DNA of 51,532 bases, taken from contig MU271188.1 of assembly GCA_021432655.1 (NCBI GenBank), forward strand, positions 1 to 51,532. The letters run 5' to 3'. A model generated the notes under the pieces. It saw only the letters and a list, made by a program, of their open reading frames with translations, did not search any database and had not been told where the DNA came from. Shown here piece by piece: positions 15,602 to 36,518 of the stretch. Source of the stretch: Atractiella rhizophila. Its lineage: Eukaryota. A program made the translations under genes and the position numbers. Every line of letters starts with the position of its first letter. Position 1 is the stretch's first letter.

Positions 15602-16646
15602 TCACATTAGGCTGCCGTCGCCAGCTCCATCTTGTCGTTTGACCTCTTCTGGTCGTTCCCAGCTCTGAGGAGGCTTCCCTCTACCTGCACGTTCCTGATT
15701 TTCATCCTCCAAGAGCCAAGCGGGCTTCCAGCCTTTGACTGTGTGATCGCACGTTTCTTCCCTCAGCATAGGGTTGGGGAAGGTATTGAAAGTGGAGCCG
15801 AGGGACGTGTATCTGTATCCTCCATTTCAAATACTTTCAAAGAGAGGAAGGTCGACGCACCCGTAATCGTAGAGGTTGCACCAACCAATTCCCTGTTGAT
15901 AAGGTGGCTGTTGTGGACCCTCTGGTGCCAAATCAGATGCACGCAAAAAGTCCCAAATGTTTCTATAACTCCAATCGAGGATGGGATGCACCCTCATAAT
16001 GCGAGGCCAATCGCCATCCGTTTCCTTGAACGCTTCAAGATCTCGTCCATTGGGATCTGTACGACGCGTTCCAATGACAATAGCTCTGATACTTGAGCTC
16101 GTGGGAAACGAGAGGTACTGTGAGAGAGCTGATTTGAGATCAGAAGTGATCGTCCGTAGGGAAAGTGAATATCGCGTTATGCTGTAGTGTACGAACTCTT
16201 CGACTTGAGGGAACGGAGCGGGACATTGGACGTAGAGCGATGGTATGCAGTATGCCGAGGTTGAGGTCTGGTGTATGCGATGCAATATCGCGGCAAAGAT
16301 GTGGACGAGCACGGTACCTTTGTAGGTATCAACATTTGAGCTTTGGCAAGACGAAGGAGCAAAATACCAACAATCCTTCCCTCCATTAAAGCTCAAAGCG
16401 AGTGACTCTGCTCTGCAGCTTGACCTCAGCTCAGCAACTCCGTACAGCAAAGAACGGACCCGTAGCGTTTTATAGCATCTTCCAATGTCTGAATAGCCTC
16501 CTTTGTCCTCCGTCCAAGCTCATCTTGACGATCGGCGAGCGCATACACTTTCTCACTGTCCTTTGACTCTCTTACTCCCACTCATTCTCCTACTAGGATA
16601 GACAGCACACCTTGACAGTAAACACTGGCACTCTAGCCTGCGCCAT
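15602..16646 (-). CDS. FAD1: FAD synthetase (FMN adenylyltransferase, PAPS-reductase fold), intact copy
   Basis: LALSFNGGKDC/TVLVH, IVIGTRRTDP, TDGDWPRIMRVHPILDWSYRNIWDFLR, WCNLYDYG/YTSLGSTFNTFPNPML...KPAWLLEDENQERAGR; stop at 15602. Confidence 0.93.
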
Positions 16647-17418
16647 TGTCATCAACTAAGCCTGATTAACTCTACTGCTACAACTTCTAGATTGTACAAG
16701 TCACAGCCAAAGATGGTGACAAATTTGTGGACAGCATAGGACAGTAGGACAGCGGGCGGAAACAAGGTGCGACTCAAATTCAAAACCAATGTCATGTCTG
16801 GCTGCAACTTCCTTCGTCCCCTGTTTCTTCGATTGCGTTCTGAGCCCTATGTCATATCTGTTCTTTATCTTTAACTATACAAGCTGATGCAAGCATGTCG
16901 ATGCGTGGACAGTTGATTCAGGGGCCTTGAATCGCGCTAGCTTCCCCAGCTCTTTGCCAATCCAAAGAAGTTCTATCTCCCCACAAAGTTCTGGGAAACT
17001 CGCAACGCAAATCAGCCTGGGGTTTCTGAGCCTGAAAGCTTGACGGTATTCGGTTCCTCGTCGAAGTCCATTGAAAACCATCGGTCATCTATCATTCGAC
17101 CGGAAGAACAAGGCTTGTGGAGTCTTGTTGGTAAGAAGGGGCAATTGAGCAATCTACATGTGTTTCCTGCTTCTCCCGCATGGTATTCTCATAAAAACAG
17201 TTGTCTGCTCCTCTGCATATCAACTTTGAAGAAAGCACCATTATCTTTGCGAAGTCTGTCCGCATGAGTCACTGAAAAGAATATCTAGTTTTGAACAAGC
17301 AAGCAACTAAGGTTCTTATCTTTCCCTTCTTACCCAACATTTACGTCGCTTCTGCAATTTTTCATTTTTCTCACCACTCTTCAAGAAAACATCTAAAAGT
17401 ACGCTGTAGGCACTCAAA

Positions 17419-17804
17419 ATGATGCGACCAGCCATGCGTCGGGCTCCAGGTTTGTGTCCCGCTTCGTTTCGTCATAGAAATAAGAAAGTTGGGCAGTTCG
17501 ACACCTCCCCTTCCGCCCTGCAGCTCTAGCATATCCCCTCCGTCATTCCGTCACACGCTCCTTCTACGCTTCACCGCTCCGTTTAGCTGACGTTCAACCG
17601 ACTCCTCCTACACCCCAGCCTACGCCCGTTGCCGCTGCTCCACAGCCAGCTGCGACAGTCGCTTCAACAGCTCCACCACAGCCGAAGAAGAAGAAACATC
17701 GACTCCGTACTTTCGCGCGTTCGGTGCTCGTCCTGATAGTTGGAAGCTTTAGCTATATCGTCTATCAATCGTACAAGGCCCGACATCCGCCGAACCAGCT
17801 TCCA
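17419..17804 (+). pseudogene. 5' fragment of the type II NADH dehydrogenase gene created by duplication 1
   Basis: Same ATG, first intron and second exon as 19401-19786, but it stops after ARHPPNQLP and runs into FAD1 antisense sequence. Confidence 0.9.
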
Positions 17805-18628
17805 CATTTCAAATACTTTCAAAGAGAGGAAGGTCGACGCACCCGTAATCGTAGAGGTTGCACCAACCAATTCCCTGTTGATAAGGTGGCTGTTGTGGAC
17901 CCTCTGGTGCCAAATCAGATGCACGCAAAAAGTCCCAAATGTTTCTATAACTCCAATCGAGGATGGGATGCACCCTCATAATGCGAGGCCAATCACCATC
18001 CGTTTCCTTGAACGCTTCAAGATCTCGTCCATTGGGATCTGTACGACGCGTTCCAATGACAATAGCTCTGATACTTGAGCTCGTGGGAAACGAGAGGTAC
18101 TGTGAGAGAGCTGATTTGAGATCAGAAGTGATCGTCCGTAGGGAAAGTGAATATCGCGTTATGCTGTAGTGTACGAACTCTTCGACTTGAGGGAACGGAG
18201 CGGGACATTGGACGTAGAGCGATGGTATGCAATATGCCGAAGTTGAGGTCCGGTGTATGCGATGCAATATTGCGGCGAAGATGTGGACGAGCACGGTACC
18301 TTTGTAGGTATCAACATTTGAGCTTCGGCAAGACGAAGGAGCAAAATACCAACAATCCTTCCCTCCATTAAAGCTCAAAGCGAGTGACTCTGCTCTACAG
18401 CTTGACCTCAGCTCAGCAACTCCGTACAGCAAAGAACGGACCCGTAGCGTTTTATAGCATCTTCCAATGTCTGAATAGCCTCCTTTGTCCTCCGTCCAAG
18501 CTCATCTTGACGCTCGGCGAGCGCATACACTTTCTCACTGTCCTTTGACTCTCTTACTCCCACTCATTCTCCTACTAGGATAGACAGCACACCTTGACAG
18601 TAAACACTGGCACTCTAGCCTGCGCCAT
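17805..18628 (-). pseudogene. 3'-truncated FAD synthetase copy lacking the last exon
   Basis: Near-identical to 15823-16646. It is broken inside the last intron, so the YTSLG...ERAGR exon is missing. Confidence 0.9.
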
Positions 18629-19400
18629 TGTCATCAACTAAGCCTGATTAACTCTACTGCTACAACTTCTAGATTGTACAAGTCACAGCCAAAGATGGTG
18701 ACAAATTTGTGGACAGCATAGGACAGTAGGACAGCGGGCGGAAACAAGGTGCGACTCAAATTCAAAACCAATGTCATGTCTGGCTGCAACTTCCTTCGTC
18801 CCCTGTTTCTTCGATTGCGTTCTGAGCCCTATGTCATATCTGTTCTTTATCTTTAACTATACAAGCTGATGCAAGCATGTCGATGCGTGGACAGTTGATT
18901 CAGGGGCCTTGAATCGCGCTAGCTTCCCCAGCTCTTTGCCAATCCAAAGAAGTTCTATCTCCCCACAAAGTTCTGGGAAACTCGCAACGCAAATCAGCCT
19001 GGGGTTTCTGAGCCTGAAAGCTTGACGGTATTCGGTTCCTCGTCGAAGTCCATTGAAAACCATCGGTCATCTATCATTCGACCGGAAGAACAAGGCTTGT
19101 GGAGTCTTGTTGGTAAGAAGGGGCAATTGAGCAATCTACATGTGTTTCCTGCTTCTCCCGCATGGTATTCTCATAAAAACAGTTGTCTGCTCCTCTGCAT
19201 ATCAACTTTGAAGAAAGCACCATTATCTTTGCGAAGTCTGTCCGCATGAGTCACTGAAAAGAATATCTAGTTTTGAACAAGCAAGCAACTAAGGTTCTTA
19301 TCTTTCCCTTCTTACCCAACATTTACGTCGCTTCTGCAATTTTTCATTTTTCTCACCACTCTTCAAGAAAACATCTAAAAGTACGCTGTAGGCACTCAAA
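18629..19400. promoter_or_regulatory. Divergent (bidirectional) intergenic region between FAD1 and NDE1; second copy at 16647-17418
   Basis: Head-to-head ATGs at 18628(-) and 19401(+). Promoter function is inferred from position only. Confidence 0.6.
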
Positions 19401-21659
19401 ATGATGCGACCAGCCATGCGTCGGGCTCCAGGTTTGTGTCCCGCTTCGTTTCGTCATAGAAATAAGAAAGTTGGGCAGTTCGACACCTCCCCTTCCGCCC
19501 TGCAGCTCTAGCATATCCCCTCCGTCATTCCGTCACACGCTCCTTCTACGCTTCACCGCTCCGTTTAGCTGACGTTCAACCGACTCCTCCTACACCCCAG
19601 CCTACGCCCGTTGCCGCTGCTCCACAGCCAGCTGCGACAGTCGCTTCGACAGCTCCTCCACAGCCGAAGAAGAAGAAACATCGACTCCGTACTTTCGCGC
19701 GTTCGGTGCTCGTCCTCATCGTTGGAAGCTTTAGTTATATCGTCTACCAATCGTACAAGGCCCGACATCCGCCGAACCAGCTCCCCTTCGATCCTAGTTT
19801 GCCTACCATTGTTGTGCTCGGAAACGGATGGGGAGCTACGAGCTTCTTGAAGAAGTTGGATAATGAGGGGTACAATGTGGTTGTCGTCTCTCCACGAAAT
19901 TACTTTACCTTTACTCCTCTACTGGTGAGTTGTTCCCACCAAGTGGAAAGGAGCGGAGGTTGAATGTCGTCGGGTTAGCCCAGCGTGACTGTCGGCACAC
20001 TGGACTTCCGTTCCATCGTCGAGCCGACCAGGTTCATAACACGACACATGAAGCGAGAGGTGCTTTTCCTCGAAGCTGAAGCCTCGGATATCGACCCCAT
20101 AAATAAGACAGTCACTGCGAGAGGTGAGTTCTTTCATAATGTATGTGACGCAATGAGCTGATAAAGGGAGCTTTAGACAACAGTGAGATTAAAGGGGCCA
20201 TTCACGATTCTACACTCAAATACGACTACTTGTTGTATGCCGTAGGAGCAGAGAACAACACTTTCGGTTCGTCCTCTGTCCTCCCTGCTTCTTATGGGAA
20301 ACGTCATTCATTAATTAACGTGCTGTGGGGCTGGATGCGATTACAGGTATTCCTGGCGTGCGAGAGCATGGCTGTTTCCTGAAGGAAGTTTCGGACGCAG
20401 AGAAGATTCGAACGAGGATGATGGATTGTGTGGAGAGCGCGTCTTTCGCTGGACAGCCGGAGGATGAAGTCAATAGGCTGCTGCACATGGTCGTCGTTGG
20501 TGGTGGCCCGACAGGTGTGGAGTATGCTGGAGAATTGTACGATTTCTTGACGGAGGATCTGGTCCATTGGTACCCTGGTATGTCTTCTTCCGTTTATCTA
20601 TTTCGTTTGTGGAAATAGTGATAAATGGTTTGGTAGGACATGCCGACAAGATCAAAATCACACTCATTGAAGCGCTACCTAATGTGCTGCCGATGTTCTC
20701 AAAGCATCTCATGTCCGTCTTCCTCCCTTCACTTACCGGTTGCGAGCTCAGCTTAAAGCGTGGGATAGTGAATACGCTACCTCAACCTTCAAAGAGCAAA
20801 ACATCGAAGTCCTCACACGAACCATGGTGAAGGAAGTGAATGATCGCACGATCATTGCCCTGAACGAGAAGAAAGAGAAGGTCGAAATTCCTTACGGACT
20901 TCTCGTTTGGTACATTATCTCTTCCCATTAATCCTTCAAGGCTGAAGAATTTCTGTGATGCAGGGCGACAGGCAATGCCACGCGACCGCTAACGAAAGAT
21001 CTGATCCAGAAAATCAACGCCAATGCTGGGAGCGATGTGCAGAAGGAGCGGCGCGGTCTGGTAGTCGATGAATTCCTCCGCGTCGTCGGTGCAGAGGACA
21101 TCTATGCCTTTGGAGACGCATCTGCCACTCCCTACGCAGCGACTGCACAAGCGGCCTCCCAGCAAGGGAAGTATCTAGCGAGGATGTTTGGACAGATGCA
21201 CAAGGCGAAAGTCCTCGAGGCTGCCTTGGAGGCTGCAAGGACGGGAGGAGCAGGAGATAAGGTGGAAGGACTGAGCAATTCGTTGAAAAAGGCGAGGAAT
21301 GTTAAACCTTTCCATTATTCACATGCTGGTTCCCTCGCCTATATTGGAGGAGATAAGGCGATCGCCGACCTGCCATTCATGCAAGGCAATCTCGCAACGG
21401 GAGGTGCGTCCCTTGGTCTATTTGCTAGTGCGAATACATCTGATTGAGGTCATCGTGTTTTGTGTGAAAAGGTCTGGGAACGATGATCTTTTGGAGGAGC
21501 GCCTACATTTCGGAATTGTTCAGCTTGAGAAACCGCGTGTTGGTCATTGCGGACTGGGTGAAGGTCAAGATTTTGGGACGGTGTGTTTCTTCTCTATCCA
21601 ACCAATCCTGCTGTGCTGATTCGAAACTCGAACCAAATAGGGATGTGTCACGGGAGTAA
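19401..21659 (+). CDS. NDE1: Mitochondrial type II (rotenone-insensitive) NADH dehydrogenase, NDE1-like, intact copy
   Basis: [79 protein letters not shown]...[62 protein letters not shown]. Confidence 0.93.
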
Positions 21660-22304: not shown

Positions 22305-25300
22305 ATGGGGTTGGGTTTCAAAGAGCCAAAATACGTATCGCCCTACTCCGCCTCATCCCTTCTCTCCCTCTCCCGTCCCGCCACCTCTTCCTCCCCTTCA
22401 CTCCAGAGCGGAAGCCTCCAGCTCAAATCGTCGTCGACAAGCCTCCACTCCTTGAACCTCTTTCTCGACGAACTCCTCCACCTCTTCGTCTACTCATCCC
22501 TCTCCTCCACTTCCTCCCCGTCATCCACCATCCCCGGTGGCGCAATCTTGGCCCTCACCACCGACCGGTTCAAGACAGCTGGCGTCCTCAAAGTGCTCCA
22601 ATCCAACCCGCTCGCCAAATCAGCAGTGCTCGAAGCCGAACTGGCTATACGTGAATACGTCCGTATAGCGGGAAGAGGCTCGAATTCGCCTGTACGGACC
22701 GATGCTGCGTTGATGAAGAATCCCTCCCCTTCATCGTCCTTACCTCCCCTCTCATCTTCGTCTTCCTCCGGCGGACTCAAGCCCGAAACGGTTTTCCTGC
22801 AGCTCAGGGAATGGGTGGAGGCTATTTGTGGACTTGGGAATGGTGCCGCGAGGGGAGAGGTGCCTGGATTGGGAGGCGGGAATGGGAGCAGAGAGCAACT
22901 CAGTTTGATGGGAGAAGGAGGCGTGGGTGTGGGAGTTTGGAGTCCGAGTCCGATTCAGGGACTGGTGAAGGACGAATTCAGACTGCTGAGGAAGGTGAGG
23001 GAGGGCATCGTTGCCAAGGCTGGAGATGACGGAGAATGTGTCACTCCCGCCTTGGCCATCTATGCGGAAAGAATAGTGTCCGTCGTCGGTGCGTTTTCTT
23101 ACCAGCACTGTGCATTCCTTGTCGCTCTTTTAACATGATGGATAGCCGAATATGTCCTTCGACGCACCGGGAGGGTGTTGGAGCGTGAGCACCCGGGAAG
23201 AATGGTGGCGGGTCTGAAGGAACTGTGGGAGGGCATGTTGGAGGAGGAGGAAGGCGGAGCTCCGGGTGGGGTGGAGCAGGTTTTGGGAGGAATGGTGAGT
23301 TTTTCTTACGAATGGAGCAGGGAGGTTTCAGTTTTTTGCACTTCAACATTTCACTGGTTGGGTGATGGCCGTGGTCAATGAAGCTGGCGGATAGTTGTCA
23401 TCCATCAGTGGATGTTCCACTCAGTTGTCAGGAACATATGCATCTCTCCTGTCCTTGACGTTCCAAAGGAATAGTGTTTGCCTGTGTAGCCTGCGGCAGG
23501 CTGCCTGAAGGGCAGAGCCCGCGTTCTACAGAAGCAAACGCAGCGGTCTACCGAAAGATGATTCTTCGCTGTCGTAGCTGCGCCGCAACAGCTGTGAATG
23601 GACTGGAATAGAACGATGGAATAGAATTGAAGAGATGGAGAATGACCCCTCTGGCACCGCTGGAATGGCTCATTCATCTCCTTCATTTGGTCCCGTCTTC
23701 CCCTCCCGCTCTTACTCCTTCTCCCTGCAATCTTCTCAATTGTGTTTGGTATTTTGGTGTGGGTGAGGTGGAACCGAGCTGTTGAATGCGCGGAGATGGG
23801 GGTTGTAGAAGACTGAAGGTTCTGTCACGTCAGTCGTTGCAGAAGCAGCATTTCTGTGGAGGACATCATGGGACAATCACGTTCGTTTTCCCGTCTGTGG
23901 TGTGCAGTCTGTGGCTCCTCTGCACAATTGCAATATTTCGCGTGTAGATTTGTCGTGCTTGTTTGTCACTGCGCTCCAGAAGAGTGGAATAAACATGGGA
24001 GAGAGAGAAAGCTCCATTGGACGGATGTGTGCTCGTAAGATGGCACAGTCGGCACTCTCTTGAAATGTTTTGCTTCGTTTCTACATTTCTGCATGTGTGT
24101 GAATGGTCCGCGCAATAAAGGCCATGGTGCACAAAATCAAGAAAAGTCATTCATAGAAAACTTTTTGATTCTCCATATTCTGTTGCTCTTTCCTCTTTGC
24201 ACCTTCATTGCTTCTGCAAACATTGACAGATAATGCGTTAAAACTTCCACATTGTTCACCTTTATGACAATGCCCGCAGAGATATTCGTGAGCAATTGGT
24301 GTTAATCAGATTGACGTTCCATCTACAATCCAAAGACCGCCGGAGGAAAACTGGAGCGCTCCACTTTCTTGGTCCCGAACAGAGTACTTCGGTCCCTTTG
24401 TTCTTCTCTCAGTACTTCGGTTTACTTAGCTCGCTCTCTTCATCTATCTCCCTTTCTGGTTGCCACCACGATACTGACATGATTATCACTGAACAGCGCG
24501 TCAGACTCTACATGGAGGTAAGTTCTGATTGTTTTCTCTCTCAGGAATATTTCTGAGTACTGTCGCAATTAGCATCAGCTCCAGGCATCTGCTAGTAAAA
24601 GGGGGAAGAAACGAAATACCAACTCAGTCACTTCGTCAGCGAGTCCGAGTTCCACGACACCCTCATCATCCAAATCTCCATCTCTTCTCTCCTCGGCAAC
24701 CGGCAAGTCCTCCCCTTCCATGACCACGAGCCGCAGTGTCAATTCAACAGAAGCTGCAAGACCTTCGACAAGTACTTCCTCTCACACCGTCGTCAGTGGG
24801 AGCAGTCACGGACATCAAGGTATGGTGAGAATGAGCGAAGAGGCGAAAGGTCGGAAAAGGAGTGGAAGCACTCATGGTCACGATATGAGGTCAGGAGTGG
24901 GTGATAGCGAGGGGGAGAAGGAAATCGCTAACTGGATGGACTCTGGTGATAAAGAGGTGCGTTCCCTATATATCTCCCGTTACTGCGGCTGATATTTGAT
25001 TCATCCTCAAGCGAGACGATGCAGACGATGCCGAGTTCGAGAGGCTGATGATGTCGGATTCATCTATCTCCCTTTCTGGTTGCCACCACGATACTGACAT
25101 GATTATCACTGAACAGCGCGTCAGACTCTACATGGAGGTAAGTTCTGATTGTTCTCTGTCCGCTAATATTTCTGAGAAATCACTGTCACAATTAGCATCA
25201 GCTCCAGGCATCTGCTAGTAAAAGGGGGAAGAAACGAAATACTAACTCAGTCACTTCGTCAGCGAGTCCGAGTTCCACGACACCCTCATCATCCAAATCT

Positions 25301-27877
25301 CCATCTCTTCTCTCCTCAGCAACCGGCAAGTCCTCCCCTTCGATGACCACGAGCAGTAGCGTCAATTCAACGGAAGCTGCAAGACCTTCGACAAGTACTT
25401 CCTCTCACACCGTCGTCAGTGGGAGCAGTCACGGACACCAAGGTATGGTGAGGATGAGCGAAGAGGCGAAGGGTCGGAAAAGGAGTGGAAGCACTCATGG
25501 TCACGAGATGAGATCAGGAGTGGGAGATAGCGAGGGGGAGAAGGAAATCGCTAACTGGATGGATTCTGGTGATAAGGATGTGCGTTCCCTTTATATCTTA
25601 CTTTACTCTGGCTGATATTTGATTCATCCTCAAGCGAGACGATGCAGACGATGCCGAGTTCGAGAGGCTGATGATGTCGGGCAAGACTATGAAGGTGTCC
25701 CTTACCCCAAATCGGTTACGCACCATGGAGGTGTGTTTCTATCTCTTCTGTTGCTCTGTATGGCTGACGGCATCGTGAAGGCATTCGAGAAGGAGAAAGC
25801 CCATAGCCGCAACGCTTCGTCCTCTGGCGCTTCGACACCTTCTGCCAAAATGTCTCGCGAACGATCCCTCTCCCAACCTCAGCCTAACTCTGTTACTCCC
25901 AAAATTTCACCCATGATGCATACAATGCCCCTCAGCAGTGCTGTCGGCGCTTCTCCTTCGTCGTCTCCATCCGCTTCTAAACCTCGTCTCAAACCGCGAG
26001 GTGCTCGCAAGGCGCCGGAAGAAGTTGAATCAATTGCAGAGGACGAAGAGGAGGAGGAGCTCGATTCCGAAGATGAAAGGATGGGATATCGTCGGAAGCC
26101 TCAGAAGGAGAAACAAGAAAGCCTTTTCGACATTCTCAACAGCGCTCCTCCATGGGAGAGGGATCCTTCGCCCGCTCGTCCAGGGCCGATGCAAGCTGGT
26201 GTGGCCTCGTCTGGGCCCGGGGAACGGGAGAAGCCATCTAGTCGAAAGCTACAGAAGATGTCCGGAGAAGGAAGGTCCTCGTTTGGCCATAATCGTGCCC
26301 TACCTGGAACTGGAAGTTTCAGCGCGAATCCTAGCAAGCTCACTTTCGACGAGAAGACCACGTTTGGCAGTCGGGACGACTTATCAGTGTCGACGGCGGC
26401 GATGAATAGGAACAAGAGCCAGCCTAATCTGAGGGGTGCATTTGCAGATGATAAGGTTGCGAGAGGAAACTACAATACGGAGAGCACGAAAGATTTGGCC
26501 GACTTTTTTAACTCTGTTCCTCCACCTCCTGCAGCGCGGACAAACACTGTATTGTCAGATGAAGGGGAGAAGAAGAAGAAAGGCATTTTTAAGAACATCG
26601 TTTCCAAGCTAGGAGGAAAGGGAGGAGATGGCCGGAACGCCACTGAGGAGGAGGAGGCAGCGTTCAGAGGAACCTCTTCCCCTAACTTTGGTGCTGCACA
26701 CACTGGTCACCAAATGGCAATGGGAGGAACCGCTGGTCTAAACAGGAAAGGCAGCAAAGGAGGTGGCGTTGGGATCTCTTCGGACGACATCAAGCGGATG
26801 CGGGGAACTGGAGGCGGCTCTTCCATATCGCTGGACCAGCCATTTCCCTCCAACTCAACCAGCACTAGCAGCCCGCGCATAGACTTTCCTCCTGCTCGTG
26901 GAACCTCTTCCCTCCCGAAATCAGCGTCAGCCGCGAATGCTTCAAAACTCGTTGCTGCTAGTGCGAACGGAGTAAGCGACTTTTCAGCTCTCCTCGAGAA
27001 GTCAACTGCGCCGTCCCGGCCATCTCTATCCAACAACCCATCCTCAAGTAGCATGAATACAAGTCAACCAAGACCTTCGTTTCAGAAACCCGCTTCCGGC
27101 ATGTCTACAGACACCATAACTTCGAGCGACTCTTTCAAGACCGCCCGTGGGAGCAGCGACATGATCACCTCTTCTCAAGGACAAAGGAAGATATTTGCCG
27201 AACCTGGATCCGGGCTTCACATCCAGACGCCACTCCACTCCACAGATTCTTTAACCTCAAATGGAGCTCAAAGTTCTGTCTCACCCCCAGATACTCCCCA
27301 GCAGTCCACAATGAGAGGAAATCGACCGCTTTATCTGCCAACAAAGGTAGAGCAGAATTACAGAGACAATCCCAACGCTCACAAACGACGATCCAATTCT
27401 CACTTATCCGGACGATCCATGACGCCTGTCTCTTCGATCCCAGAGCATGCTGACGCTAATTACTTGAGAGAGCGTGGTCCTGGTGCGCGATCGAGTCCCT
27501 CGAGCCCGAATGTCAGGGGAGGAGGATTGAGACCTTCCTCGGCGGGAAGCAGCGGGGACACCAGTGAGATGGAGGTCGTCTTGAACGCGCTCAAGAATTT
27601 GCAGAGACAGTTTGAAGGGGCGGAGTCAGTGGCAGAGTGTAAGGAAGCGTTAGATTCCACAATTCTCAAACTGGTATCGGAAGGTAGTGGTGGTCTGAAT
27701 GGAAGGGAGAGGAGGACGTCGAGTCCCATGCCAAAGATGAAGAGCGAGAGGACCGAGAAAGAGTATAAGAGACATCAGGAGGCATTGGAGGGTAGCATGG
27801 CTGAGTTCTTATTAGGAGAAGGAGGACCAGAGATGGTTGCACATGGGCCGAACGTCGTCCTAAATCATGGGGAGTGA
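22305..27877 (+). CDS. Large uncharacterised fungal protein: N-terminal helical domain plus long Ser-rich disordered region with D-F/I-L/F-x-x-x-PP motifs
   Basis: Exons splice in frame: 22305..(LNLFLDELLHLF, LAKSAVLEAELAIREY, TPALAIYAERIVSVV/AEYVLRR)...GGM | 1202-nt intron 23295-24496 | RVRLYME | HQLQAS...DK | RDDADDAEFERLMMSGKTMKVSLTPNRLRTME | AFEKEK...ESLFDILNSAPPW...STKDLADFFNSVPPP...NHGE*. The gene contains an internal exon-block duplication. Confidence 0.7.
23345..23690 (+). ncRNA. Candidate structured RNA element inside the 1.2-kb intron
   Basis: Manually paired stems: 23345-23357/23405-23416, 23359-23369/23394-23404, 23475-23481/23534-23540 (inner tgtag/ctaca, gcgg/ccgc, ctgcct/gggcag), 23541-23546/23566-23571 and 23574-23580/23589-23595, closed by ttcca/tggaa. 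Many G-U pairs on the + strand. No family recognised. Confidence 0.4.
24439..25680. repeat. Tandem direct duplication 2, ~620 bp, intragenic exon block (copies ~24439-25057 and ~25059-25680)
   Basis: ORFs 24720 and 25343 are near-identical. Junction gatgatgtcgg-a-ttcatctatctc at ~25058. Confidence 0.95.
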
Positions 27878-28307
27878 AGAGGTTTTCTCCCACACCTGTC
27901 AAGTTGAAGAGTGCCTGTCTGTTGTGAAAGAATCCTGTTTCTTCTTTTCTGGAGGAACCTCACCAAAGTATGAAGAATACATGTGATCTGTGTGGAGTAT
28001 TTATTCGATGTAAAAGTCTCTCGTTATCTTTTATCTGGCTGGGATGTTTGACTTCAGACTCCATTCCCAATACCCCATATACCCCTCTCTTCCTTTCTTC
28101 GAATTCCAATGCATTGACACTTATCGATTATCCATTGCCTTCCTCTGCTCCACAGTTGCACCATGCGCTCGTCGAAAACATCTCGTCCTCGCTCACAACA
28201 AACCTCTTGCATAAAGAAGTTCTGATTGAGGCACATAGAACATTGTGCACAACAACATTAAACGCGAACGCGTCAGTCAGGTGACCGCGACAGAGAAAAT
28301 CCAGAAA

Positions 28308-29027
28308 ATGCGCTTTGATCGGGAGCAACTCGAGCGACGTGCACCACTGAGGCCCAGAGAAAACAAGGAGCAAAGGTGCCCTATAAAGGGTCGATTGCTT
28401 CATTGTTGGCGGTACTCAGACGTACTCCCACTTCCAACGGAGCTCGACCCGCTCTTGCTTGCACCTGTGCAGCGGTTTGTTTGATTCACCTCACTGATAG
28501 ATCCAAGACGAAGACGAGATGGCGACTGAAGTCATCGACCAATTTCCTGCGCAACCTCCCCCCGGGAAGCATGTTTTTGTCCCATTTGTTCCGTTGGCGA
28601 TGGAGATGAATTGCTGATCATACCTCTGGACAGCAGATTAGGCAGGCAAATAAGGATCCGCGTCAATGCTTTCGAAATCCCTTTCGATAAAAGCGATAAT
28701 CTAAAAAAATTGGAGAAATCAGGAATTAAACAGTTTCGCGTGAGTCTCTCCTCGAATTGTATATCGGGACGTCAATTGTAATCTTCTTGATGTTGCCTTT
28801 TTGACAATACAAATATTTATTCAAACTTCTAGGATGTAGTGCAGTAGACCCATGTCGCGTTGCTTTCCTATCCATTTTTATCTGGCGTAAAAAAGAAAAC
28901 AGTTATTCCTTGCGAGCGCCGCATATCAAGATAACCTGTCATGTCACACCATTACAGTTCCAGAGACATATTCTGAATGTGAAACATGATGGCACTCTAT
29001 TGGGTTGATACCTGGAAAGCATCCTTC
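28308..29027 (+). pseudogene. 5' fragment of the Argonaute gene created by duplication 3
   Basis: Copy of 31778-32497, including the LGRQIRIRVNAFEIP exon, fused to the 3' half of the upstream gene. Confidence 0.8.
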
Positions 29028-31352
29028 AACTGGATGGATTCTGGTGATAAGGATGTGCGTTCCCTTTATATCTTACTTTACTCTGGCTGATATTTGATTC
29101 ATCCTCAAGCGAGACGATGCAGACGATGCCGAGTTCGAGAGGCTGATGATGTCGGGCAAGACTATGAAGGTGTCCCTTACCCCAAATCGGTTACGCACCA
29201 TGGAGGTGTGTTTCTATCTCTTCTGTTGCTCTGTATGGCTGACGGCATCGTGAAGGCATTCGAGAAGGAGAAAGCCCATAGCCGCAACGCTTCGTCCTCT
29301 GGCGCTTCGACACCTTCTGCCAAAATGTCTCGCGAACGATCCCTCTCCCAACCTCAGCCTAACTCTGTTACTCCCAAAATTTCACCCATGATGCATACAA
29401 TGCCCCTCAGCAGTGCTGTCGGCGCTTCTCCTTCGTCGTCTCCATCCGCTTCTAAACCTCGTCTCAAACCGCGAGGTGCTCGCAAGGCGCCGGAAGAAGT
29501 TGAATCAATTGCAGAGGACGAAGAGGAGGAGGAGCTCGATTCCGAAGATGAAAGGATGGGATATCGTCGGAAGCCTCAGAAGGAGAAACAAGAAAGCCTT
29601 TTCGACATTCTCAACAGCGCTCCTCCATGGGAGAGGGATCCTTCGCCCGCTCGTCCAGGGCCGATGCAAGCTGGTGTGGCCTCGTCTGGGCCCGGGGAAC
29701 GGGAGAAGCCATCTAGTCGAAAGCTACAGAAGATGTCCGGAGAAGGAAGGTCCTCGTTTGGCCATAATCGTGCCCTACCTGGAACTGGAAGTTTCAGCGC
29801 GAATCCTAGCAAGCTCACTTTCGACGAGAAGACCACGTTTGGCAGTCGGGACGACTTATCAGTGTCGACGGCGGCGATGAATAGGAACAAGAGCCAGCCT
29901 AATCTGAGGGGTGCATTTGCAGATGATAAGGTTGCGAGAGGAAACTACAATACGGAGAGCACGAAAGATTTGGCCGACTTTTTTAACTCTGTTCCTCCAC
30001 CTCCTGCAGCGCGGACAAACACTGTATTGTCAGATGAAGGGGAGAAGAAGAAGAAAGGCATTTTTAAGAACATCGTTTCCAAGCTAGGAGGAAAGGGAGG
30101 AGATGGCCGGAACGCCACTGAGGAGGAGGAGGCAGCGTTCAGAGGAACCTCTTCCCCTAACTTTGGTGCTGCACACACTGGTCACCAAATGGCAATGGGA
30201 GGAACCGCTGGTCTAAACAGGAAAGGCAGCAAAGGAGGTGGCGTTGGGATCTCTTCGGACGACATCAAGCGGATGCGGGGAACTGGAGGCGGCTCTTCCA
30301 TATCGCTGGACCAGCCATTTCCCTCCAACTCAACCAGCACTAGCAGCCCGCGCATAGACTTTCCTCCTGCTCGTGGAACCTCTTCCCTCCCGAAATCAGC
30401 GTCAGCCGCGAATGCTTCAAAACTCGTTGCTGCTAGTGCGAACGGAGTAAGCGACTTTTCAGCTCTCCTCGAGAAGTCAACTGCGCCGTCCCGGCCATCT
30501 CTATCCAACAACCCATCCTCAAGTAGCATGAATACAAGTCAACCAAGACCTTCGTTTCAGAAACCCGCTTCCGGCATGTCTACAGACACCATAACTTCGA
30601 GCGACTCTTTCAAGACCGCCCGTGGGAGCAGCGACATGATCACCTCTTCTCAAGGACAAAGGAAGATATTTGCCGAACCTGGATCCGGGCTTCACATCCA
30701 GACGCCACTCCACTCCACAGATTCTTTAACCTCAAATGGAGCTCAAAGTTCTGTCTCACCCCCAGATACTCCCCAGCAGTCCACAATGAGAGGAAATCGA
30801 CCGCTTTATCTGCCAACAAAGGTAGAGCAGAATTACAGAGACAATCCCAACGCTCACAAACGACGATCCAATTCTCACTTATCCGGACGATCCATGACGC
30901 CTGTCTCTTCGATCCCAGAGCATGCTGACGCTAATTACTTGAGAGAGCGTGGTCCTGGTGCGCGATCGAGTCCCTCGAGCCCGAATGTCAGGGGAGGAGG
31001 ATTGAGACCTTCCTCGGCGGGAAGCAGCGGGGACACCAGTGAGATGGAGGTCGTCTTGAACGCGCTCAAGAATTTGCAGAGACAGTTTGAAGGGGCGGAG
31101 TCAGTGGCAGAGTGTAAGGAAGCGTTGGATTCCACAATTCTCAAACTGGTATCCGAAGGTAGTGGTGGTCTGAATGGAAGGGAGAGGAGGACGTCGAGTC
31201 CCATGCCAAAGATGAAGAGCGAGAGGACCGAGAAGGAGTATAAGAGACATCAGGAGGCATTGGAGGGTAGCATGGCTGAGTTCTTATTAGGAGAAGGAGG
31301 ACCAGAGATGGTTGCACATGGGCCGAACGTCGTCCTAAATCATGGGGAGTGA
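29028..31352 (+). pseudogene. 5'-truncated second copy of the large uncharacterised gene (last exons only)
   Basis: Starts inside the ...NWMDSGDKD exon and lacks all the N-terminal exons. The ORF translation is identical to copy 1. Confidence 0.85.
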
Positions 31353-31777
31353 AGACGTTTTCTCCCAAACCTGTCAAGTTGAAGAGTGTCTGTTGTGAAA
31401 GAATCCTGTTTCTTCTTTTCTGGAGGAACCTTCACCCAAAGTATGAAGAATACATGTGATCTGTGTGGAGTATTTATTCGATGTAAAAGTCTCTCATTAT
31501 CTTTTATCTGGCTGGGATGTTTGACTTCAGACTCCATTCCCAATACCCCATATACCCCTCTCTTCCTTTCTTCGAAATCCAATGCATTGATACTTATCGA
31601 TTATCCATTGCCTTCCTCTCCTCCACGGTTGCACCATGCGCTCGTCGAAACCATCTCGTCCTTGTCCACAACAAACCACTTATATAAAGTTCTGATGGAG
31701 GCATATAGAACGTTGTGCACAACATTATTAAACGCGAACGCGTCAGTCAGGTGACCGCGACAGAGAAAATCCAGAAA

Positions 31778-34700
31778 ATGCGCTTTGATCGGGAGCAACT
31801 CGAGCGACGTGCACCACTGGGGCCCAGAGAAAACAAGGAGCAAAGCTGCCCTATAAAGGGTCGATTGCTTCATTGTTGGCGGTACTCAGACGTACTCTCA
31901 CTTTCAACGGTGCTCGACCCTCTCTTGCTTGCACCTGTGCAGCGGTTTGTTTGATTCACCTCACTGATAGATCCAAGACGAAGACGAGATGGCGACTGAA
32001 GTCATCGACCAATTTCCTGCGCAACCTCCACCCGGGAAGCATGTTTTTGTCCCATTTGTTCCGTTGGCGATGGAGATGAATCGCTGATCATACCTCTGGA
32101 CAGCAGATTAGGCAGGCAAATAAGGATCCGCGTCAATGCTTTCGAAATCCCTTTCGATAAAAGCGATAATCTGAAAAAATTGGAGAAATCAGGAATTAAA
32201 CAGTTTCGCGTGAGTCTCTCCTCGAATTGTATATCGGGACGTCAATTGTAATCTTCTTGATGTTGCCTTTTTGACAATACAAATATTTATTCAAACTTCT
32301 AGGATGTAGTGCAGTAGACCCATGTCGCGTTGCTTTCCTATCCATTTTTATCTGGCGTAAAAAAGAAAACAGTTATTCCTTGCGAGCGCCGCATATCAAG
32401 ATAACCTGTCATGTCACACCATTACAGTTCCAGAGACATATTCTGAATGTGAAACATGATGGCACTCTATTGGGTTGATACCTGGAAAGCATCCTTCCAT
32501 TTTGACGTAGACTTGTTGGCTGATTATTTGATAAATCCTTTGCTTGGCTTGTTTGTACAATTTCGATCGTATTTGCAGAATGCTCTCACTGCGTCTCCTG
32601 TTGAGCTGTTCAAACGATTCGGATCGTTCGCTCTGTTCAAGTTTCGCGCCTATTTCGTCATCTGATTCCCGTCTACAAACAGGTCTCCATTGTGTCTGCA
32701 TCTTCAGAACAAGGCAGTCGAGAGGTAAAGGATCGACGCGCCCGTCGCGTCATCTTCGACTCTGTCGATTGGAGGAGTTGGTGGAGCAGGCAGGGAAAGC
32801 CGCAGGATAGTTCGGATCCCCAAAGGCTTTTGACGGGAAAGTATGTTTGTCAACTGTTGAGATCTCTAGCGAGCGATGAATCTGAAGGAGTGCCGACTTG
32901 CAGTTTCACGCTTGGTCTACCTATGATCTCTCCGACCCGGATCCAAATGTGATTTCACTCTGTTTTGACCTCAAAGCAAAGCACGTTGATCAGACAAACG
33001 GCTAGTGGCCTACAATCGCAGATTTCAGTGATGGTACACAGCCAAAGAGATTCCTGGTCACTGTATGTTGCCTGCAAAAATTCTCAACGAGTCCGAATCT
33101 CAAGATGGGACAGTTGAGACCTGAGAAACAGCTGAACATCGCTCCACTTGGTCAATTTCTCTTCGGATTGAGAAATAACTTCAATAGCCCAGAAGTGTGA
33201 GCTCTTCTTGACTCATTTGACAGCAAATAGTGTAGGTTGTAAAAAAGTTGTCTTGTCTAGCATCGACATCATTCGGGCTTTCAATTGCTTTCGTGAGAAT
33301 AGCTTGCTCATCAATTACAAACTGAACATGCCTGCAGTTCAGCACTCCATATACCGTAGCTTTCACATCGAAGGAAATATCATATATGACACCAACGACA
33401 CAGCTCGAGCAGGTGCTATGGACCTCGTCCGTGAGCCAAAACTCCCTTTATTTCACATATCTCCGTTATTATTGCTAAATGGTGAACAGGTGGTTATATC
33501 CAGCACATACGACCAGCAAAACGGTGCCTCGTCTTGAATATGGACACCCGCGTTGGAGTCGTATAGTGCGCTGCTTTTTCAATCCCCCTTGTCACCAGAA
33601 TGTTGATAATCTAACAATCGGACTGGTCGATCTCTCATCGAATTCATCCTCGAACTCCTCAAAGATCCTCCTTCAGATCTTAACCTCGGACGGGCTAGCC
33701 ACTTCACCGTTGAGGGTCTGAGAGCTGACAGAATGGATGGCCAACTTCGGCTTAACATAGGACGGTTGTTGCGAAAGCGAGAGATTGAATACTGTCCGCG
33801 AGAAGGGAATGTCGTCACAAGAGGAAGAATATCCGGCTTAGGATTGGTAGGGGCCGATCAGGAAATGTTCGAGATTAATGAAGGTGGTAAAACAACTAGG
33901 ATCAGTGTTGCGGTATGTTTTTCCTCTGTCTGTGCCTCAAGTCCAATATTAACGAAACGTGCAGCATTATATTGAGCGCAAGTACAATCTGCGTTTACGG
34001 CACCCTCAACTTCCTTGCGTCACGATCAAGAACGGCAGCGTATCTCTCCCCATGGAACTTTGCGTACCTCGTAAGGTGGGTTCAAATCTTGACCATCGGA
34101 TTCTTCAAAGTTAATCCGTGAGACAACAGGGTCAGTTGTTCAAAGGGAAAGCAGCTGCAGGTTTGATTATGGAGATGCTCAAATTTGTCAGGGCAGGGTA
34201 AGTCTAATAATCTGTCCACAACAAATTACCTTAATGCCACATGATAGGCCAGCTGTCAGGATTGGAAAGGTCGTCAACATGTTGGACACAATAAAGACCA
34301 TTAATGCGGCAAGTCCAGAGTAGGCTCCATCTCTCCCCCTCATATCAATCCACTGATAAATTACCGGTAGCATGCGCCAATTGGGCATAGCTCCAACTCT
34401 CAAAGCCATTGAAATGGTAGCCCGAGTCCTATCAGCACCGCGATTAGCCTACCGCGGGTGTGCACTTCGCCTTCTCCTCAAATCTTGCTCATCCTCTTGT
34501 CAGTGCACCTCTTCGAGGGGATCCTGCCAACCAACAGTCGGTTCATGGGGTCCCAGATGTGCATTTATCAGCAGGAGAGCATCGCGTGGTGAAGGGATCG
34601 TGGAATGTTACCCAGCAAAGTTTCAGTGAGGTGGTGCAGTGTAGTGACTGGCACGTTGAATATTTGATCTCAATGCCAGTTGTGATAGGTAGGGGCTTAG

Positions 34701-36518
34701 GATCTTCTTCTGTTTTGTCAACCACCACCGCGAACAAGAATTTCTTGGCTTATTGCAAAGAGCTGGGCCGGCTAGAGGGATGACCTTTTCTCGACCGCGT
34801 GTAGTAACGGGCAGACACGTCCCTGGCTCAAGCGCTTTCGTGTGTCTTCTGATGCTGTCTCTATAGATTGCTAACGAGTTCTCTAGTTGACGGACAAGGC
34901 ATTCCATCTCAATTTGTACTGTGGACAGAAAATAAAAGGATGAATGACCAATATATGAACAATCTTCTTCTCAAAATCAACGTCAAATTAGGCGGATTCA
35001 ATCACTTTTGTCAGGTCCACTGTTTTGCCTCTCTGTAGATTTATTGCTCAATCATTTCCAGCCGGTTGATGCGATGCTACCCGGGCAATTTACCATGGTC
35101 ATGGGTCAGTTTCTTGCCAGATAGCACAACTAGCACGCTCGAAGAGGCTGATTGTGACTAGGTGCGGATGCAACCCACGCCTTGGGATTCGAGAAGCCCT
35201 CCATTGTTGCCGTCGTTGGGTCAGTCAACGAAGTCCTGACAAAATACTCGGCAGAGGTTAGAGTGCAGCGGCTCTTGGAGGTCGACGTGCAAGGCTCAAG
35301 TGTGTTCATCTTCTAGTTCTAATGAGACGGCTGAGATATGTCTAGGACGTGCGAAGAAGATGGACATAATCGAAGAGCTGCCTAGCATGGCCAAGGCATG
35401 CTTCAATTCTTTCTCTCACGCGCTGGCTTACATTGTATTTAGATCCTTCTCAATAGATATTATGTGCGCCACAGCAGGCCATTCCTATTTTCCTCAACCA
35501 TCTAACGAGCTTTGTGCGCTAGGAAAATAAAGGCAGATTTCCTCAACAGCTTGTTTTCTTCCGCGATGGTGACTTCGCCATCTCTCTATCCACAACTTTC
35601 TGACAGACATCTTGCAGGTGTTTCCGAGTCGGAATATGTGGCAGTGATGCAGGTTGAAGTCAGAGAGCTTCGGGGTATATGGTTTTCCTTCTCACTTAAG
35701 AGTGGGGTCTGACCATGAGCAGTTATTTTGAAAGCTGCTTGTGAAGAGCAAGTGAAGAGAAACGGGTTAAGGGAGATGATAGTGAGTCCTGTCCTCGTAT
35801 AACCTTCAATCTCAAGGTGTGATAGCAATTGACCTATATTGTCTGCGGCAAACGGTTCGTCAGTTGCAGCACTTCCTTCCAGATCTTAGGGGATTTTCGC
35901 TAGCCACAACTTCCGATTCGAGCCCCTCGACAAGGACCCGGAGTGCGTAAAGGATAATTGTCCCGCGGGTACAGTTGTTGATGATAAAATTATCACCCCA
36001 CGACGTTCGTATCCTCACTCATGGCTCCCCCTCATCATAATAAGCCACAATCTAGTGTACGATTTCTATCTTCAGAGTCATGCGGCCATCCAAGGAACCA
36101 GTGCCAGCACGCACTATACGGTGTTGTGGGACGATCATAACTGGCAGTAAGGGTCTGGTCCTGTTTACTCTCTTCCGCCTTCATTGTTTTGTCCAGTCCG
36201 GATCGACTGCATCCTTTCTGCAATGGGCTGGCCAACAACTTTCAAAGAGCTACTCGCTCGATCTCGATGCCTGCACCGGTCTACTATGCTGACATAGGTA
36301 CGTGTCGTTAGCCCTCTACCTGCTCTTCGAGTGGCGCTGATGGAAAGGCAGTTTGCACGAGAGCTCGCGAATGGTTTTTCGAAGAAGATGATCATGCTGC
36401 CACCCACACAACCCCTACCGCTCAGGAAAGGTTTCAGGATTTGCAAGCGTACCAAGCCCGCCTCGCCAGCATGCAGCAAGGGCTGAATGCTATGGCTTAT
36501 AAGATGTGGTTCTCTTGA
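31778..36518 (+). pseudogene. Argonaute (N-L1-PAZ-L2-MID-PIWI), divergent, >20 introns, apparently disabled
   Basis: Spliced motifs: PPPGK/LGRQIRIRVNAF (N), KAFDGK/FHAWS, MDLVR/GYIQHIRP...LVLNMD (L1), ISVA/HYIERKYNLRLRHPQLPCV...LPMELC (PAZ), ARVLSAPRLAY...GSWNV (L2), KRFL/DGQGIPSQFV...QYMNNLLLKINVKLGGFN (MID end), MVMG/ADATH...[77 protein letters not shown] (PIWI). Family identity is secure; pseudogene status rests on lesions at ~32820, 33617 and ~34820. Confidence 0.88.

Follow-up and report, generated by a model that had tools for sequence, protein, structure and literature searches.

Eukaryotic Argonautes of the AGO clade have a common PAZ-L2-MID-PIWI order. The residues of the MID pocket are described as Y529, K533, Q545 and K570, and the catalytic residues of slicers as a DEDX tetrad (PMC4390867). 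Loss of RNAi is described for Cryptococcus deuterogattii, where the losses are fixed throughout the lineage and have removed its two Argonautes as well as its single RdRP (PMC4778953). Localised deletions in Argonaute, Dicer and RdRP genes are the point of likeness between that account and the case presented here; each Atractiella deletion, however, has a long counterpart in the same assembly. Errors of assembly form a further comparison. False heterotype duplication and gap-related errors, with false gene annotations as a result, are reported for assemblies of heterozygous genomes in which alleles were assembled side by side with gaps (PMC9516828), and there are descriptions of ambiguity braces in ALLPATHS-LG output (PMC6434015) and of inaccurate gap closing (PMC8848313). 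As in PMC9516828, the alleles here were assembled apart or next to each other, separated by a gap; that work concerns vertebrates and duplications, whereas in Atractiella one of two haplotype contigs carries a deletion, and the comparison rests on contigs rather than on source-strain read depth.

The window is a stretch of 51,532 nucleotides from Atractiella rhizophila contig MU271188.1, and it contains a multi-exon Argonaute gene whose reading frame is broken within the MID domain. The gene was compared with a second assembled copy on contig G000:C590 (coordinates prefixed L011) and with contigs, not raw reads, from four of 10 listed public sequencing runs (X1, X2, X3 and X5), over L011:1-5000. 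X1 and X2 are one sample, and assembled contigs drop rare variants. The features of the locus are as follows.

About 31989-36518, plus strand: Argonaute gene, multi-exon.
31989-33430, plus strand: 5' part of the gene, N/L1 region, with a probable start ATG at 31989; weak tblastn matches.
33490-34817, plus strand: L1, PAZ, L2 and the first part of MID, in seven exons and an eighth up to the joint; open frame, from the translated exon chain and profile matches.
33566-33617 (L011 107-158), plus strand: intron with acceptor AA in both assembled copies; the last base is G in X1 and X2, and the intron is spliced in X3.
34817-34818, plus strand: deletion joint, at which 115 bases of C590 are missing (L011 1358-1472; 38 codons and one base).
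34840-34886, plus strand: 47-nt GT-AG intron with a CTAAC branch site, from sequence signals and homology.
34941-34943, plus strand: premature TGA in the shifted frame after splicing, from translation of the exon chain.
34818-36518, plus strand: end of MID (K, Q, K and K kept) and PIWI; open for 350 codons, with the stop at 36516-36518.
L011 2107, 2174, 2323 and 2637: one-base indels in the PIWI exons of C590.

An earlier note on this DNA had proposed that the frame switches near 34818, and this was confirmed: the exon at 34701-34839 reads EFLGLLQRAGPARGMTFSRPRVVTGRH in a frame that differs from the frame RPWLKRF starting at 34818, and the upstream frame, once spliced, ends at the premature TGA, leaving the MID-to-PIWI frame discontinuous in this copy. 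The 47-nt intron that it placed after PWLKRF has its GT-AG signals and leads into LDGQGIPSQFV...KINVKLGG; it is absent among the 15 joints listed (of 24) from the public-run contigs. Its statement that PIWI is open and undecayed downstream also holds across the 350 codons. Nine listed X3 joints fall within this 3' part, and the introns at L011 105/158 and 861/911 in the L1/PAZ/L2 part are spliced in X3 as well. Further upstream, the weak matches in the 5' part are LGRQIRIRVNAF and IEGNIIYDTND...AMDLV, and an X3 contig carries 788 letters upstream of L011:158, its loose end matching the exon that ends at 33430. The gene has two GC-AG introns (34651-34700 and 35396-35442), the second of which is GT-AG in C590, and a 21-base micro-exon at 35443-35463 is seen in X3 and X5.

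A public gene model derived from the window DNA, P0001, is labelled 'Piwi-domain-containing protein [Atractiella rhizophila]' and scores 208.5 bits against PF02171 (cut-off 28.9; Pfam Piwi E 1.8e-61). On our reading it passes the frameshift by skipping 22 bases. The short copy might be thought to yield a MID-less or PIWI-only protein, through a shifted donor or from an ATG inside the gene at 34940. Splicing from a donor at 34799 or 34844 to the acceptor at 34886 would put the frame right, 34940 is the position of the first in-frame Met, and P0001 itself restores the frame. Such joints are absent among those listed in any run, however, and the product would lack the phosphate-pocket Tyr and the first Lys. 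P0001 is alone in its protein cluster and looks like a gene predictor's repair. We give a MID-less or PIWI-only product a negligible chance.

A Piwi search of the genome returned 10 matches on five contigs. One of these, C590, matches the window at 94-98% from 33460 to the window's end, collinearly over about 18 kb. Since it stays collinear with the window to its end, C590 is the other haplotype; a paralogue was ruled out by the collinear flanks. At 34817/34818, C590 holds 115 extra bases that restore the frame, which reads ...QESGNRTAIGQQLERTLRDHLSAKTQLVLVVLERKDQIY-RPWLKRF. The segment codes for 38 residues of MID, among them the LVLVVL strand and the Tyr, in agreement with the proposal that a frameshifting deletion had removed these elements. 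The further statement that most of the MID domain is missing was too strong: 38 residues are gone, and the stretch from the GM motif to the Q has 29 residues in the window, compared with 67 in C590 and 60-76 across 45 homologues, these being the first 45 longer than 780 residues among the 120 matches listed. Against the homologue profile the MID exon chain scored 68.8 bits with the segment and 42.9 without it, a gain of 26 bits; shuffling the 38 residues gave a mean of 51.3 bits (sd 3.4), and 0 of 200 shuffles reached 68.8. Searched alone, the MID exon found no Argonaute in PDB or Pfam and only P0001 among 1.84 billion representatives, and the exact 22-base pattern beside the joint occurred in 0 stretches of metagenome_contigs.

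By sequence, the gene is an ordinary, divergent fungal Argonaute of the AGO clade. Structure matches include human AGO2 (9w5i_D and others, E 6.5e-49) and Neurospora QDE-2 (2yhb_A, E 8.1e-33), and basidiomycete 'argonaute-like' proteins are about 30% identical. Profile and tblastn matches at 33490-34460 cover the PAZ, L1 and L2 regions; Pfam PAZ gave no score on the single exon tried. The K, Q and K of the MID pocket align with those of 45, 45 and 44 of the 45 homologues, and the MID K, Q, K, K and three catalytic Asp of AGO-clade homologues match the long allele. The long allele differs from the clade in a Tyr that lies one residue further from the Lys (YxxxxK, one column off relative to the homologues), an Asp finger, a 12-residue insert and an N region that aligns poorly, and the window copy differs in its 38 missing MID residues and shifted frame. 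The four catalytic positions read D, D, D and D rather than DEDX; the second is Glu in 45/45 homologues. In both assembled copies this Asp follows the 12-residue insert, which lies before the glutamate finger (window 35162-35395). As Asp occupies the finger position, slicing is doubtful and the protein may be a non-slicing variant, although a Glu from the insert might replace the finger Glu.

Judging by homology, the intact protein most likely functions as a small-RNA-guided AGO protein, with MID anchoring the guide's 5' phosphate while PIWI engages the target. Over 674 codons, the window and C590 show 18 synonymous and five non-synonymous codon differences, one of the five produced by the alignment around a C590 indel, and pN/pS is about 0.08 (p 2.5e-8). 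By this ratio the two copies have evolved under purifying selection, a pattern that fits an assembly error and a very young allele alike. The PIWI exons of C590 carry four one-base indels (three extra A, one missing G), all in homopolymers and all shifting the frame, with no clear amino-acid change besides. Between 2 and 4 kb of C590, one-base indels are frequent (7 and 6 per kb versus 0-5 elsewhere), and all four PIWI indels are absent from X1 and X2. Neither assembled copy of the Argonaute is intact as written.

The 115-base segment is present in contigs of three of the four public runs compared, X5 having no cover there. X1 contig 2 covers L011 1168-1507 unbroken and bridges both breakpoints at a depth of 288, versus 126-159 for single-haplotype contigs; X2 (L011 1072-1483) crosses the left breakpoint and extends only 11 letters past the right one, and X3 (L011 1240-1455) runs over the left breakpoint and into the segment. 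At both breakpoints, the contigs of the covering runs are free of listed joints and of loose ends, and a skip of L011 1358-1472 was not seen among the 15 joints listed of 24. Among its listed joints X3 has 11 that are intron-like and lie within the gene, which suggests that X3 is RNA; the long form is thus transcribed and spliced, and it is the normal one in the species. Letters from each assembled copy stand together on the run contigs, within 31 bases of each other (L011 318 with 333; 1230 with 1232), so these contigs represent a further haplotype and are probably from other isolates. Since the runs lack the window's haplotype to the left of the joint, they cannot clear the window's allele. 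Window-type letters at L011 1310, 1332 and 1343 were considered as proof of a long window haplotype and rejected, as those contigs carry a third combination of letters.

The earlier note had read the lesion as the loss of an RNAi effector in progress, and had named an extra 100-200 bp near 34820 in all molecules as evidence that would overturn this. An extra 115 bp was found in the molecules covered here, C590 and contigs of three of the four runs, the latter probably not from the source strain. As both the second copy and the public data contain the 115 bases, the short form points to an assembly error or to one broken allele, and not to loss of RNAi. The rest of the pathway is also in place. 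Two further Argonaute loci, on C164 and on the pair C309/C344, have profile matches from N to PIWI, and MID is present in the C164 gene. C4 and C367 carry two tandem Dicers, and for each Dicer one of these contigs has the long form; RdRP gave 21 matches on 10 contigs in the genome search. The count of other RNAi genes that had been suggested as a check comes to two Argonaute loci besides this one, a pair of Dicers and several RdRP loci; the other components show no parallel loss in genome searches, and the Argonaute lesion is not fixed, the segment being carried by C590 and three of four runs. The C164 Argonaute (L012, about 32320-32230, minus strand) has a full MID strand and reads KKDIIKRD, with the Tyr missing four residues before the Lys.

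We lean towards an assembly error as the origin of the short form: the species keeps and transcribes the Argonaute, the assembly contains the two haplotypes of a heterozygous strain, and 115 bases would have dropped out of the window's contig through a join or gap-closing error. The presence of the long form in the assembly and runs argues for this, as do several kinds of local fault, some of them within the Argonaute gene itself, and the recurrence of blunt deletions in a single copy of each Dicer and of MSS1. Among these faults, the window contains three near-identical head-to-tail duplications, each with an A at its joint.

15823-19785: head-to-tail near-identical duplication.
24439-25680: head-to-tail near-identical duplication.
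25553-32497: head-to-tail near-identical duplication (25553-29027 and 29028-32497, 98.9% identical), which repeats the first 0.5 kb of the Argonaute gene.

The duplications are probably two haplotypes laid in tandem. A third haplotype was looked for in the window and not found; two of three 128-base versions were identical. We counted 13 head-to-tail duplications with a joint of ≤11 bases over 191 kb of C9, 200 kb of C1 and further stretches, leaving out four C1 pairs with spacers of 106-166 bases and one pair with a 122-base spacer. At five of the 13 joints there is an extra A, or a stretch of 11 A, that neither flank accounts for; another joint reads 'aag', five more show a flank-explained A and the last two lack an A.

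Mismatches between contigs show a second kind of fault. Of 93 isolated mismatches between C309 and C344, a pair on opposite strands, 80 leave each contig with whichever letter comes first in the alphabet (p 6e-13), and the first 56 of the 93 (L013/L014) do so without exception, whereas same-strand pairs show no alphabetical bias; pooled over partly overlapping pairs, the alphabetically first letter was found at 354/499 versus 893/1,721 mismatches. We infer that ambiguity letters, N included, were flattened to their first letter in this assembly, and single-base differences in the assembly may consequently not be true haplotypes. The AA acceptor at 33617 is probably one such flattened letter.

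Deletions in one of two copies also occur at other loci. The first Dicer lacks 1,844 bases on C367 and the second lacks 570 on C4, both bluntly, the latter deletion removing the DUF283 region:

L058 5091-5660 (G000:C367) versus L067 1795/1796 (G000:C4): 570-base deletion in the second Dicer.

Both Dicer deletions lie over the dimerisation (DUF283) domain, each on one of two paired contigs. MSS1 has a blunt 702-base deletion on C938 relative to C9, with no A at the joint (L085 4626/4627, G000:C938), and C434 is missing about 100 bases with a 4-base overlap. Lesions of this type thus also affect genes outside RNAi. On their left side the joints in both Dicers end in A, as does the Argonaute joint, which is blunt and without microhomology. 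An unexplained A was found at 0 of 5 deletion-type breaks; we estimate that a placeholder should give one about half the time, and that the joint A carries a likelihood ratio of 1-2 as evidence. The placeholder A was rejected as proof of error, the A at the Argonaute joint being explained by its left flank and the MSS1 joint having none. A placeholder origin of the Argonaute joint is no more than compatible with these data. A mis-sized gap hardly accounts for the loss of 1,844 bases, which argues against assembly error, and as the MSS1 joint has no placeholder, it leaves room for real deletion alleles.

A real recent deletion, made by end joining without homology, that left one nucleus of the sequenced strain with a null allele is a serious contender to which we assign somewhat less than an even chance. 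The blunt Argonaute joint without an unexplained base is consistent with it, as are the blunt deletion without a placeholder in MSS1, the undecayed surroundings, which fit a young allele, and the absence of the window's left-hand haplotype from all public runs compared. Such an allele would be sheltered by the other nucleus and the other Argonautes, and its transcript would stop at 34941 and probably be degraded. Against a real allele, the deletion is on one contig only and absent from the listed joints of all three covering runs, and many local assembly faults are proven, some in the Argonaute gene itself.

A broader reading, that RNAi is decaying in this strain and that the Argonaute deletion, the C590 frameshifts and both Dicer deletions are all real, would liken it to an early stage of the loss in C. 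deuterogattii. Both Dicers do carry a blunt one-contig deletion over DUF283, and neither assembled Argonaute copy is intact. Each Dicer is nonetheless long on the other contig, pN/pS between the Argonaute copies is low, the C590 indels are missing from X1 and X2, and two more Argonaute loci and several RdRP loci exist. A one-copy deletion of like type in MSS1, a gene unrelated to RNAi, weakens the reading further, and we give it a very slim chance. It is likewise highly improbable that the blunt deletions are real and that the strain is heterozygous for complementary null alleles of the RNAi core, with one Dicer broken per haplotype, both over DUF283, and the Argonaute broken on one or both haplotypes.

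This assembly yields domain losses that look convincing, and one of these has entered public protein sets as the MID-deleted P0001. If real, the window's allele would be a recessive null in one strain, which is nothing unusual. The case would become important only if every one of the Argonaute and Dicer lesions were real and such lesions were more frequent there than in other genes; complementary nulls, if true, would capture in nature the erosion of RNAi while a second nucleus shelters it.
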